This document shows positions 3,434-61,139 of a stretch of 64,000 nucleotides of DNA, one piece after another. A program made the position numbers and the translations under genes. The notes under the pieces are model-generated. The model ran no database searches, was not told where the DNA came from, and saw nothing but the letters and a program-made list of their open reading frames with translations. The DNA is from Eledone cirrhosa. Its lineage: Eukaryota. The first letter of the stretch is position 1, and every line of letters starts with the position of its first letter. The stretch spans positions 56,234,001 to 56,298,000 of the forward strand of contig OZ024742.1 in assembly GCA_964016885.1 (NCBI GenBank), given 5' to 3'.

Positions 3434-3485
3434 GTTGATTGCTCTTTGCCATAAAATGGTAACTGGAGGATTCCTGCTGGGAAAG
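3434..3485 (-). CDS. M13 peptidase internal exon, 52 nt (FPAGILQ motif)
   Basis: ttttgcag|CT TTC CCA GCA GGA ATC CTC CAG TTA CCA TTT TAT GGC AAA GAG CAA TCA AC|gtaagt = (S)[16 protein letters not shown](T). The phase matches the previous exon. The HExxH exon was not found in 1-3433. Confidence 0.95.
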
Positions 3486-4199
3486 CTGCAAAAGAATGGA
3501 AAACATATCCTTAAATTGCATCTGAATATAATACATATATATACGGGTAACTCCATCCTTGTCCTATGTATATATATATATTCGTAAATAACTCTGTATC
3601 TGTGTGTCTCCGATTTTCTATCTCTATGCCTCTCCCTCAATATATATATATATATAATTCAATTAATGAAAGTTGGTTAATCCAAAAACTAAAACCACAC
3701 ATCTTAAACTGACTGAGGAGAACATCTGAAAGGGTTATTATGCAACCCCTCTGACATCTTCAAAATACATATAAACAGAATTATGTAATGTATAGATGCA
3801 CACGTAAAACAGCCAATCTTATTCATAATATATATATATATATATACTTTTATTAGGTTAAATCTCTACATATAAGATGAATATTGATTAAGTTACCCAA
3901 CAAGGAAAGCTCAGTGAAGATTAAGCTCAGAGCATAATTGTTATTACCCAGTTACATGTCTAAGTAAGTTTTATTCGATTGTCTTAATTAGGCAGGTAAC
4001 TAGTTAATGTACAGAGTGAGATATATATAGTAAAAGATTAATCATCTACAGGTGAACTTTCGACAATCTTGGCTAGATTATTTCTTCATGCGATTACATT
4101 TATTATTTGTCATTCTATATGTATGTACGTAATACTAGCCTTTTCTCTACTTGATATATGAAAATAACCTTTTTCTATATCGCTTTAATTTGTATAAAT

Positions 4200-4400
4200 A
4201 TGCGCGTGGCTGAGTGGTTAGAGAATTGAATTCGCAATCGAAACTTGTGAGTCCGAATACAAATCCAGGCGATGCGTTATGTCCTTGGGGAAGACACTTT
4301 ATTTTACGTTGCTCCTTCTACCCGGAGTTGCGATCGGTAGATAGTATTAGCAATTGTAAAGACCAATGGAAACATTGGTGCGATTGGACCAAAGTCGATC
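4200..4400 (+). mobile_element. tRNA-derived SINE (family S2)
   Basis: A-box TGGCTGAGTGG, then TGTCCTTGGGAAGACACTTTATTTTACGTTGCTCC; similar to 6255-6400. Confidence 0.65.
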
Positions 4401-6254
4401 GACTGTCATTGTATATTATATATATATATATACGTGTATACATTCATAAATACAGATATATATATATATGATTTTCTGTCTGTACGTATGAATGTATGCA
4501 CGAATGTATATATATATATATATATATCTATATATATATATATATATATGTGTGTGTGTGTGTGTGTGTGTACATATATATCTATGTATGTATGTATGTA
4601 TGTATGTATGTACGTATGCATGCATGTTTGCATATTACTCTTTAATCAATTTACACAAATTCAGCCAAAACCGACGTTATTAACCTAGTCAAATTTTCAT
4701 TCTAACTTTGTAATAAAATCTCATTGTTACACGGTAGAAAATATAAATTTACGTTGTTTTTTATAGCTTTGACACATAAACCACAGTCGCTGCTATATTC
4801 TTGTTAGAAATATTCCATAGTTTTAAAAGTGTTAAATCTCTTCCTCTTTCCATCACCCTCCCCGCCTTTCTTTAATTTCTATTTTCTCTCTGTGTGTCAA
4901 ATGTATAGTGTTTAATGGCATAGTAGGAGGATGCAAATGGATTTGCATAATTGTCATTAACCAACATTCTGGAACTATATGTGATTACAGTGCTCAATAT
5001 CCGATAAAATGGGGCAATACCCCTTTGATAGGTTGCCAATTATTGACATTCTTTCTGACGAGACTTTCTCTTTTATTGTCTTATTTTCTTATGTTGATTT
5101 TAATCCATCTGTATTAAATACATTTATAATGTTTCAATTACTGCTATTCTCCTCGCAACGTTAAAGTGGTTTGTGTTTCTTTGTTTATTTGAAATGGATA
5201 GCAAATTATTGTATGTGACCATTTTAAGCTATTTGTAATTATTGACGTTCATACTGATATCACATAAACTGCAGACATTTGACAACATTATATTTTTCTA
5301 GTGGACGTTTTTTAAAGCAATTTCCTGTCAGCAAATTACATTTAAAAACACATAAACCTCTCAGTCAGTGAAATTGTAATGGAATAGTTTTATTTCAACT
5401 TTATTTTTTGCATCCCTAGAGGAGAGATCATGCAGTAAATTCCTCATTAAGTATCTGTTGAACCAACCATTCATACATCATAAAGAGGTCTATCAACATT
5501 TTATAACATCTATAGAACGTATTTCTTCTCATCTTTCAGTATCCTTTGAAAAGGCTAAAAACGGCTTTAGAATATGAAAATTCGATTTTGAAATATTTAT
5601 TTTCTATAGTACTAACACATTCTTTGGTATGGGGTTATTCAAAGATTAGAACAATTTTTCGAATTTCAATTCATTGGATTATTCTTCAGATTTTTCACAT
5701 ATTTGACTAAAATTTTCAGATGAAAGCAATTCATGCTTTAAAAGCAATACTTATTTTCCATTCAGAATAAAAATACGAAACGGAAAATTATTCGATTTTT
5801 TTCTGTTTACATTTTTTTATGGTTGAATGAATGTTGGCAGTGTTAAAGGGAAAGAGGAAGTTAAGATGATTTATCGAATCTGAGTTTGATAACTTAATCA
5901 AAACTATGAAATATTAACACAGAATGCTAAAATATTACCAAATGAATGCTTATTTATTAATCTATTTATTTTTGTTTTAATTCTACTTTCATTCCTGCGT
6001 TCAATGCAAACTATATTCGATCAGTCACACTGCGCATGTACTAAATGCTCAAAAGAAGTGTATACCCCTTGCATAATTTACTTCACATAAGGAAAGCATT
6101 TTATAGCATATCGGAATCAGTAAAATAAATTGTTTTGTTTTGATATATTTGTTAATATATTTCATTTAGATGTTATAGTAAATCAAATCTAATATGTTAA
6201 TGTACACTACGTACATATAAGTATTCTATCACAGATTTATTGCTTTGCTTAACG

Positions 6255-6500
6255 TGAAGACGCATGGCTTAGAGGTTAGAGCATTGGGCTTGAAATCGAA
6301 AGGTTGTGAGTTCGATTTTCGGACCGGGTGATGTGTTGTGTCCTTGAGAAATTCATTTTATTTCACGTTACTCCAGTTTACTCAGCTGTAGAAATGAGTT
6401 GCGATCCTGCCAAATCAATGGGTGGCAGTAGTTCCAGCTGCACGCATCGAAAGACTGTTGTAGTGGTTCTGAGAACAATGCGGCTTTGCAGATGATCAAT
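6255..6500 (+). mobile_element. tRNA-derived SINE (family S2)
   Basis: A-box TGGCTTAGAGG, B-box GAGTTCGATT, body ACTCAGCTGTAGAAATGAGT. Confidence 0.7.
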
Positions 6501-6963
6501 GTATGTGTGTATATACATATATATATATATATAAATATTATATATATATATATATCAATAAGGCTGACGGCTGTATGTACTTAACAAACTTTTCTCCAAA
6601 CGGCACCAGATTTGCAACAGATTTGCACCATAGATGTAACTTTTTCCAAGTAAGAAAGTGAGAGTATTTTTGGCTACTAAATTTTGTTAAAAGATTAAGA
6701 TATTTTATTGTTTATTTAAATATTCACTTCTTTAAAATATTCAAATGTCAACACTTCCGGTTAACGATCACTTATGCGACATTCCTCTCTCTTTCTTAGT
6801 CTGTCTTTTTAGATAGATACATAGCTATAACGTCGCGCCCTTATAATATGTCTCTGTAATATCTGGCTTGTCTCATTATGAAAATCACTCTGTACATTGA
6901 CTTCGCTATCTGTGTGTGTATATATGTATAGATAGTGTATATATATATATATATATATATATA

Positions 6964-58782: not shown

Positions 58783-59064
58783 ATATATATATATATATAT
58801 ATATATATATATATATATATATATATATATATATATATATATATATATATACCCGTATGTGTTTGACGGAGAAAAGCGTACTGAATACCGAAGTGGAGTT
58901 TAATTATTCATTTTATTAAGGCTAACTTGAGAGTGTTACTACTCTGGAGTTTCGATTGTTTTTCAGTCATCAGACTCTGTGATAAACAAGCAAAACTTCC
59001 TGAGAAACATGACTCACTATTTCGCCTTAATAAAATGAATATATATATATATAAAATTCTGCCT

Positions 59065-59328
59065 TAAGCCGGAAGACTCATTTGGCTGGTGCTTAACACG
59101 GTTTCATGGCGCGAAGCGACTGGGAGTACAACACTCCACCTGGACAGGACGACAGTCCATCGCAGGGTTAAACCCCCAGCTATTGTTGGTACTCATTTTC
59201 AGCTGAGTATACTGGAGCAGCCTGAAATAAAGTGTTTTGCTCAAGAACACAATACGCAACCCAGGAATCGAACCCCCGACATTATGATCGTAACTCCAAC
59301 ACCCTTACTACTAGGCCACGTGCCTCTC
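59065..59328 (-). mobile_element. tRNA-derived SINE (S2-related)
   Basis: Minus strand: A-box TGGCCTAGTAG, B-box GGTTCGATTCC, body CTCAGCTGAAAATGAGTACC. Confidence 0.75.
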
Positions 59329-60548
59329 TATATATATATGTATGTCTGTGTGTGTGTGTGTGTGTGTGTGTGTGTGTGTGTGTGTGTGTGTGTGTGTGTG
59401 TGCATTTTATATATATATATCTATGTATATGAATATTTGACAAATGTGTCTAGATATTTGGAATTGCAATTCTCTATGAAATTGTGTTCATAATCATGCT
59501 TTCCTTTATGTATTGTCCTCATATTAGATTTTTACAAACCGCCTAAATACATAATGTACGTACTGAATAATTAAATAAATGTATTGATTATATTGATTAT
59601 AAAATGAACTTAAGGAAATAAAAGAATTTTTTTTAGGATTGACGGTTAATTATTACACAACTTTCATCAGAAAAGCCCCAAAACTTCCATTGTCATATTA
59701 GTTGATTGATACGTAAATATACCGGTTTCCAGACAAACAAAATGAGTTATCATACATTTATTATATGTATATTTATTCCAATATAAAGAACGAAGTAGGT
59801 TACGACTAAGCTGGCCAAATTAATTACAGATTGAATGTATTGTTGTAACTATTCGTATTAAAATGTTGATGAGAAAAGAATTTTCCCCATTAATGTCTAT
59901 ATTTACATCGTTGTCTCCACGAAAGCCAAACATAATTTTATTAAATACATTTCTCTGTAGAATTTTCTAAAACCAGAATTATTAATGATCCAAATGCTAT
60001 TTTATCCTATATTGTCTTTGAGGAATTCAATAGCTGCGAACATGTTGACGATTCACTAAAAACATTTAAAAAAATATATCCCATGATATATTCTACGAGA
60101 TTTAGTAATAAAAGAAAATATTGAAAATGTTAGCATTTATTCTAGATTGATATCTAGTGGCGACGTTTCCTGAAACAAACAGTACACTCAAACTGTTTCC
60201 TATATGAAACTTATCTTATTTATTTTGAAGTATCTTTTGTCAGTCCATTAATAATTAATATATTTTATCATTCCCTTAATTTAATGCTTATCGGACGAAT
60301 CTCTGTATATATGTAATATTTTTCATATAAACATATATGTATGTATATATATATATATGTTTGAATATATATATATATATATATATATATATATATATAT
60401 ATATATAAGATTATTGTTATCTTTACCTGGAAAAAGAGAGAAGGGGGAGTGCTGGGGAGGAAATAGAGAAGCTATCGAATAAGAAAATGTAATATAATAT
60501 TCGATGGAATATATTAAAAAGAAGAGGAGGGAGACAGATATATGTAAA

Positions 60549-60936
60549 TAATTGTTTCTACTTTTGGCACAAGGCCAGCAAATACCCAGTGGATTACTGG
60601 TACTTTATTTTATCGGCCCCGTAAGGATGAAAGGCAAAGTTAACCTCGGCAGGATTTGAACTCACAATGGCAAGGGCCGTAATTCTGTGCGTCAAAGCAT
60701 GGCGTCCGACCCTCTACCGATACTACCAATCCACCGCTAGAAATATATGTAAATAATGGTTTCTTATATAGGCACAAGGCCAGCAATTTGGGGGGAGGGG
60801 AAAGTCGACTAAATCGACCCCAGTGCGTGACTAGTACTTTATTTTATCGACCCCGTAAGGATGAAAGGCAAAGTTAACCTCGGCGGGATTTGAACTAATA
60901 TCATAAAGACCCTCTACCGATACTGCCAATCCACCG
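60549..60936 (-). mobile_element. Two tandem SINE S1 copies
   Basis: Copies at 60549-60737 and 60755-60936; the flanking ATATATGTAAATAAT occurs three times. Confidence 0.82.
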
Positions 60937-61035
60937 GTACAAATATATGTAAATAATGAGACTTTGACAACATAGTTGCTCACGAACGGATGCTATTGCA
61001 GGAATTTTAATTTATAGAATATGTAAAATACAAAC

Positions 61036-61139
61036 CTGTCTTTGTCGACAGTATCCCTTAGATCCTTCAGGTTTTCCATGGCTTTTCCCTTCATCGTCGC
61101 TAAAACATTTTTCATGAAGTTGTCCGGGTCATAATCGAT
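61036..61139 (-). CDS. M13 peptidase (neprilysin/ECE-like) internal exon, 104 nt
   Basis: ttttag|ATC...GACAG|gtttgt. Encodes [34 protein letters not shown](R), similar to the neprilysin segment LNYKEDEYFENII...KLREKVDKDEW. Ends in phase 2 and joins the next exon in frame. Confidence 0.88.

Follow-up and report, generated by a model that had tools for sequence, protein, structure and literature searches.

Hammerhead ribozymes in two long introns of a neprilysin-like gene of Eledone cirrhosa: probable transposon passengers with a predicted self-masking geometry

Penelope-like elements (PLEs) carry minimal hammerhead ribozymes with a palindromic stem III, an extra base between positions 9 and 10.1 and a U3-A8 core, whose monomers are reported as inactive in vitro and whose dimers show low activity (PMC4209133). 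These elements are also described as making inverted 5'-truncated structures, with some clades favouring microsatellites (PMC8557442), and a lizard PLE has been reported to carry a hammerhead (PMC11167929). The metazoan retrozymes of the non-long-terminal-repeat (non-LTR) kind consist, according to PMC7229834 and bioRxiv 2026.07.22.740005, of non-coding tandem units of about 170-400 nt with one type I hammerhead each, and 42-44% of the Xenopus retrozymes are given as intronic (bioRxiv 2026.07.22.740005). Conserved intronic hammerheads are likewise known in amniotes, as described in PMC6155905. The present work concerns a stretch of 64,000 nucleotides from Eledone cirrhosa (C3:56,234,001-56,298,000, in a genome of 3.0 Gb), which is referred to here as the window and in which two introns of a neprilysin-like gene hold many such motifs. 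These hammerheads are probably near-neutral transposon passengers which, judging from folding models, would seldom cut the pre-mRNA before it is spliced.

The motifs of the window share with PLE hammerheads the minimal palindromic stem III, the extra base and the U3-A8 core, and with inverted PLE insertions the opposite-strand pairs 0.1-2 kb apart, the microsatellite targets and the presence of GIY-YIG remnants nearby. What differs is the density, with complete motifs spaced at approximately one per 10 kb and drawn from at least 18 multi-copy families; orientation to host genes and mirror-arm masking are not discussed in the passages of PMC4209133 and PMC8557442 consulted. With the reported metazoan retrozymes one family of the window shares non-coding tandem units with a single type I hammerhead each, a low GC content (36%), thousands of copies and a frequent intronic location, whereas its unit is longer (561 nt), loop 2 is long and its arrays are outward mirror pairs in TA repeats, a comparison made by sequence. 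The axolotl hammerheads HHR_Amex1 and HHR_Amex2, reported in PMC7229834 as weak monomers and better dimers, have in common with those found here either a one-pair stem III with a palindromic tetraloop or a stem II that is mismatched at its base, while their tertiary contacts between loops 1 and 2 are not evident in the sequences of the window. The amniote intronic hammerheads (RECK and others) and the CPEB3 ribozyme, which resembles that of hepatitis delta virus (HDV), also lie on the sense strand in an intron of a spliced gene, but they are single and conserved, whereas here the motifs belong to young, dispersed transposon families without strand preference. A literature search covering few subscription papers and no supplements found neither cephalopod hammerheads nor mirror-arm masking, from which absence is not implied. 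The motifs of the window are ordinary transposon passengers of a known sort, present at very high density and with a testable self-masking geometry.

A preliminary description of the window, made from its letters only, had proposed three small exons joined in frame on the minus strand, and its strand and intron coordinates were found to be exact. Exon A (61036-61139) encodes about residues 488-522 of 738 and ends in a phase-2 donor; exon B (31492-31550, 59 nt) encodes the M13 NAFY motif; exon C (3434-3485) has 52 nt. Both intervening introns, A-B (31551-61035, 29,485 nt) and B-C (3486-31491, 28,006 nt), have GT...AG ends, the frame is open through the three exons, and the peptide is the one given before. 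The gene had been called hidden, a term that does not hold, since tblastn and searches with the Pfam M13 models locate about 20 (19-20) collinear exon matches over some 320 kb, from approximately C3:56,528,000 to 56,207,400, with the Peptidase_M13_N and Peptidase_M13 domains in the expected order. The exon that follows exon C, 5.5 kb to the left of the window, bears an intact HExxH, and the downstream ENxADxGG-type motif is also intact, both taken by us, in their usual definitions, as the zinc-ligand motifs. Summed over the exons, identity is highest with Octopus neprilysin-like 1 (75%), followed by an Argonauta protein (74%), two unnamed transcript proteins (67%) and a Mytilus protein (53%), values that would by themselves place the host among the octopods. 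On these alignments the gene is likely the orthologue of Octopus neprilysin-like 1 (an M13 peptidase; P0003), with which it shares the collinear exon matches, this identity and the zinc-binding motifs, and the protein has nothing unusual in comparison.

Evidence of splicing comes from four runs of one study (X1 to X4), none of them recorded as RNA. In run X1, one contig of 2,626 nt overlaps exon B over the exon only, and for this reason X1 is taken as RNA. The loose ends of this contig reproduce, letter for letter, the ends of exons C and A that face exon B, so that both junctions are exact and the two introns, absent from the contig, must be spliced out of some transcripts at least; the position of exon B within the contig would fit a near full-length mRNA. 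The proposed joining of the three exons is thereby confirmed at both junctions, in one run of one study. Runs X2-X4 contain the unspliced sequence around exon B in one piece. The possibility that the spliced contig derives from a retrocopy was rejected, given that X2-X4 show the unspliced stretch only and that no intronless copy appears among the Pfam matches listed.

The hammerheads were searched for with a type I descriptor that accepts standard and U3-A8 cores, allows one mismatch per stem and requires a score of at least 18. In the two introns it gave 14 minus-strand and 10 plus-strand matches, against a chance rate of 0.17 matches per shuffled 64-kb window (same score, both strands, 30 shuffles). 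Two of the minus-strand matches are artefacts of a 27-bp minisatellite (8086-9479) that mimics hammerhead cores and was left out of the counts, which leaves 12 complete sense and 10 complete antisense hammerheads, the latter not weighed in the preliminary description. Homology to complete motifs yields 17 sense loci, of which 11 are complete at score 20 and the other 6 decayed, together with 16 antisense ones, and the sense total rises to 18 when the weak motif at 38686 is added. The earlier figure of about 20 sense motifs therefore stands approximately if decayed copies are included, although only 12 pass the full descriptor. Similarly, the eight sites offered as examples are all derived from hammerheads, and seven of them pass (cores 7570, 16909, which is a U3-A8 variant, 17306, 30497, 39749, 53569 and 57592), while in the eighth, near 36619 (core 36707), stem II has decayed. 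A one-mismatch descriptor was rejected because it produced 17 matches inside one 27-bp minisatellite. The Rfam hammerhead models have no match in the window at gathering score, and the matches listed from an E-value scan (150 of 294) are microsatellites and hairpins.

Half of the complete sense motifs (6 of 12) lie inside mirror insertions whose hammerheads point outward. The largest is the retrozyme-like array at 17162-21481, made of non-coding units of about 561 nt between TA repeats, which comprises three sense hammerheads (cores 17306, 17867 and 18428) and five antisense ones (19092-21335) and whose arms are 99% complementary. A second 561-nt subfamily forms the outward mirror at 57456-58792 (sense core 57592, antisense core 58531), and another outward insertion, at 12818-15029, contains a sense hammerhead at 12935-12872 and an antisense core at 14912. 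The mirror insertion at 38540-39463 has U3-A8 hammerheads, the sense one at 38686-38593, with the weakest score, and the antisense one with its core at 39317. Further members are partly or wholly decayed: an outward insertion at 11202-12185 (sense decayed, antisense complete), an outward pair at 29554-29973 (both decayed) and a self-palindromic insertion at 36587-36844, which is the decayed example site already mentioned. In several of these insertions the arms are 94-99.6% identical.

This geometry is not restricted to the window. Among 423 homology loci, a mirror copy within 5 kb was found upstream, in the locus's own sense, in 187, downstream in 10, on both sides in 14 and on neither in 212; likewise, of the mixed-strand clusters counted by eye in the first 100 genome matches listed, 11 of 11 face outward. 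As a consequence of this orientation, a polymerase arriving from either side transcribes the antisense arm first. Four of the six mirror-borne sense motifs of the window, folded together with that arm, are predicted to be fully sequestered. When the array is folded whole as pre-mRNA, all three sense ribozymes are predicted to be paired at long range with the antisense arm over 75 of 75 nt, and the ribozyme stems of 18428, 38686 and 57592 fall to 0.00 when 1.2 kb of upstream RNA is supplied (ViennaRNA); the hammerhead at 12935 was not predicted to fold in any context tried. By analogy with the known inverted PLE insertion, the outward arrangement is probably a by-product of integration rather than an adaptation. 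The same gene has another outward mirror array at C3:56,423,000-56,424,700, with 310-nt units and five sense but two antisense hammerheads, so that its sense copies exceed the masking arm.

The other six complete sense motifs, on the minus strand like the rest, have no mirror arm. The solo at 7516-7570 is a type I hammerhead with 8-bp stems I and II and a 2-bp palindromic stem III; that at 30432-30497 has a G10.1-C11.1 pair and again a palindromic 2-bp stem III; that at 16880-16909 is the U3-A8 variant; and in that at 53535-53569 stem III is a single, non-palindromic pair. The remaining two are minimal hammerheads in tandem (39719-40182), unshielded, with cores at 39749 and 40182, 433 nt apart, which on modelling may be the best candidate for cleavage as a cis-dimer. 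In ViennaRNA, whose folding leaves out tertiary contacts, the probability of a monomer stem III is 0.00 in all six, and that of stem I is 0.02 or less with 400 nt of upstream RNA. In short contexts, stem III has a probability of 0.00-0.01 in eight motifs and of 0.14-0.18 in the four of the 561-nt family. Stem III is fully self-complementary in 165 of the 205 complete motifs of a 2.06-Mb sample of the genome.

Taking these data together, a mechanism can be proposed in which the introns of an intact and spliced neprilysin-like gene would have gathered insertions of retrozymes and of Penelope-type elements. The polymerase would first make the antisense arm of a mirror insertion, and the sense arm, as it emerges, would zip into a long duplex with it. 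The solos, with a palindromic stem III of one or two pairs, a design of the dimer type, would fail to fold as monomers. Whatever slow cutting remained would be tolerated, by analogy with slow hammerheads in mammalian introns, where slow cleavage is reported to permit splicing and fast cleavage is not (PMC2995048). The preliminary description had offered suppression of cleavage, by pairing with an inverted arm or by a dimer requirement, as one of two possibilities, and this branch is supported by the sequence, at the level of prediction.

To compare the strands, gene spans were defined, without annotation, as the sequence between the outermost collinear exon matches, nested genes included. The 27 spans (1.72 Mb) contain 195 sense and 177 antisense loci, and the pooled solos show no strand bias (98 sense and 82 antisense, p=0.26), nor do the complete ones among them (43/98 sense and 28/82 antisense, p=0.22). 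Some subsets depart from parity. In the focal gene, solos number 34 in sense and 18 in antisense (p=0.037, post hoc), and in six M13 genes, also post hoc, complete solos are 35/55 sense against 14/46 antisense (p=0.0013). Sense enrichment of complete solos was then fixed as a prediction and rejected, as 21 new spans (0.75 Mb; 15 of myosin or anoctamin genes, along with more of that sort and three from M13 genes) reversed it, with 8/33 sense and 14/32 antisense (p=0.12). There is consequently no consistent depletion or enrichment, and the fact that the two sets lean in opposite directions may be due to chance or to variation between genes. The depletion of intact sense motifs suggested beforehand is missing from the pooled spans, although one sub-analysis of the new genes leans that way.

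Several observations weigh against regarding the motifs as near-neutral and seldom active, the first group of which concerns these same new spans. In addition to their deficit of complete sense solos, the counts become 3/33 sense and 13/32 antisense (p=0.004) when G-U pairs are disallowed, a result of one among three definitions. This is a hint that some genes have been purged, while the six M13 genes lean the opposite way. From this it could be argued that the motifs destroy part of the pre-mRNA and act as weakly harmful attenuators, purged from strongly expressed genes and tolerated here, as might also be suggested by the under-representation per base of Xenopus retrozymes in introns reported in bioRxiv 2026.07.22.740005. 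We consider this explanation distinctly improbable, as the pooled result is null, the M13 genes point the other way, the core-only definition gives 18/33 sense and 18/32 antisense in the same new spans, and the solos of the focal gene are in excess, not in deficit, on the sense strand.

The second group concerns the motifs themselves. Masking extends to no more than 6 of the 12 complete sense motifs in these introns and to around half of all loci. According to PMC7229834, most invertebrate retrozyme hammerheads cleave efficiently, and those with a 2-bp stem III do so as monomers; because ViennaRNA ignores tertiary contacts, 7570 and 30497, which have a stem III of this type, may by analogy be active as monomers, and the unshielded pair 39749/40182 could dimerise in cis. 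Moreover, the evidence for splicing comes from a single run in a single study of unrecorded kind, and the X1 contig proves that spliced mRNA exists while being silent on the fraction lost. It is conceivable, then, that the unshielded motifs often cut the nascent intron and that the exons are still joined, being tethered to the polymerase and the spliceosome. Splicing across introns cut by hammerheads or RNase H in mammalian systems, in the account given by PMC2995048, would agree with this, and the missing strand bias is also what cost-free cutting would leave. However, no solo is predicted to form its monomer stem III, and stem I is practically absent once upstream RNA is included; a fast ribozyme is reported to abort splicing (PMC2995048), and expression to fall by up to 20-fold when a fast hammerhead is engineered into an intron in zebrafish (PMC11856399). 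By our estimate, these introns need many minutes to be transcribed. Frequent cutting followed by splicing is thus regarded as unlikely, and passengers that seldom cut continue to be the preferred explanation.

The conservation of the ribozyme in the 561-nt family bears on where its function may lie. Each tandem unit carries a complete hammerhead and has no open reading frame (ORF), the longest stop-free stretch being of 99 codons, and the 22-nt pattern of the family core has 3,383 exact matches in the genome and none for the reversed control. An alignment of 11 distinct ribozymes (of 17 copies), related to one another inasmuch as 5 of the 11 come from or near the window, shows 1 change in 208 cells of the core and stem III palindrome, compared with 165 in 1433 of the flanks and loop, while at one pair of stem II all four Watson-Crick types are found, a sign of covariation. 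In this family (17235-17306, 57521-57592) a C and an A flank the conserved basal G-C pair of stem II in 10 of 11 copies, and a U occupies the cleavage position in all 11; the hammerhead is, on this alignment, a variant in which stem II has an additional base on either side. The ribozyme is likely maintained by selection in the mobile lineage, where it would process the RNA of the element, rather than by the host gene. It could still be thought that the host has domesticated at least one ribozyme to regulate the splicing or the level of neprilysin, for which the amniote intronic hammerheads (as presented in PMC6155905) and the CPEB3 ribozyme offer a precedent and the post hoc sense excess of solos in the focal gene a possible trace. 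Taking into account that this excess was not replicated and that most motifs belong to dispersed repeat families, several of them young by the identity of their arms, such domestication is very improbable indeed.

The preliminary description had also suggested that host transcription might release unit-length retrozyme RNA from the tandem arrays. For the array of the window this is disfavoured, because the RNA made by read-through from the host gene is predicted to form a long duplex, with the array fully paired to its antisense arm; single-strand tandem clusters elsewhere in the genome would be better candidates. One array unit matches 33 contigs of X1, and the 8 longest listed all differ from the window copy by 3-30 letters. 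As regards 17162-17790, five differences are listed that occur in at least two X1 contigs and are nearly absent from X2, and four of them (17415, 17437, 17454 and 17628, among the matches listed) are A>G or T>C, a weak hint of adenosine-to-inosine editing of element duplexes in samples that differ and a family that is multi-copy.

With respect to the genome, the locus does not stand out as special. The 205 complete motifs of the 2.06-Mb sample fall into 39 clusters, of which 18 have two or more members, and 16 of the 27 gene spans carry at least one complete sense hammerhead. The two introns are above the sample mean (6.5 sense loci and 3.3 complete ones per 57.5 kb), partly because of the one array. 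Extrapolation from this sample, which is gene-centred, would give perhaps around 300,000 complete hammerheads in the genome. The axolotl genome is much larger than this one. In it, 126,247 hammerheads were counted with a different descriptor, as stated in PMC7229834. The locus being ordinary for its genome, its interest resides in the density, about one motif per 10 kb, and in the masking rule.

A wider proposal would combine a load on the 300,000 scale, an outward geometry serving as an orientation-independent safety catch, and unshielded copies that cut a measurable share of the nascent RNA, which is nevertheless spliced; this combination is doubtful. If it were true, most long genes would be transcribed through several hammerheads, ribozyme-bearing elements would be free to fill introns, and cephalopods would offer a naturally occurring experiment, on the scale of a whole genome, in the splicing of introns that have been cut. 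The effects of intron cleavage have so far been studied mainly in engineered reporters, and thousands of intronic ribozymes, sense or antisense, masked or unmasked, young or decayed, would provide a measure of whether it matters in an animal. The masking geometry could also explain why hammerhead-bearing retroelements have not been purged from genes.

Among the other transposon remnants of the window, a Penelope-type GIY-YIG endonuclease lies on the plus strand at 9994-10392 (PF01541, E=3.7e-7). Its family has 16,551 first-look candidates, with all 150 scored matches at 95-100% identity and open frames of up to 905 aa, and is, from this sequence identity, a young one and possibly the active mobiliser. 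A Penelope-like remnant on the minus strand (31980-34763) includes a decayed mirror pair of its family's hammerheads near 32007 and 32120 and a Cys-rich ORF (33574-33972) that belongs to a high-copy family, has no meaningful Pfam match and is taken by us to be a Neptune-type linker. The U3-A8 hammerhead family is found 1.29-1.47 kb downstream of such linker ORFs at 4 other loci, and at about 1.6 kb in the window, a possible link of hammerheads with PLE coding sequence observed for this family; inverted 5'-truncated structures and microsatellite (TA) targets are both present among the hammerhead insertions. Between TA repeats, at 22258-27568 on the plus strand and hence antisense to the gene, there is a nearly intact two-ORF long interspersed nuclear element (LINE) of 52% GC, presumably akin to the Tx1/L1 clade, with a weak zinc-knuckle match in ORF1 and, in ORF2, endonuclease and reverse transcriptase with one in-frame stop. 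Translations also reveal decayed reverse-transcriptase fragments on the minus strand at 1949-2572, in the intron downstream of exon C, and a 24-bp minisatellite occupies 954-1506. Roughly 150 nt past the stop codon of the gene a TA-rich repeat of about 1 kb begins (L004:7980-8965). Finally, the genome has at least eight more M13 paralogues (C24:7.51-7.82 Mb, C2:318.05-318.13 Mb, and C3 at 18.2, 89.0, 151.2 and 192.9 Mb), three of them compact on C24, with spans ranging from about 17 to 320 kb.

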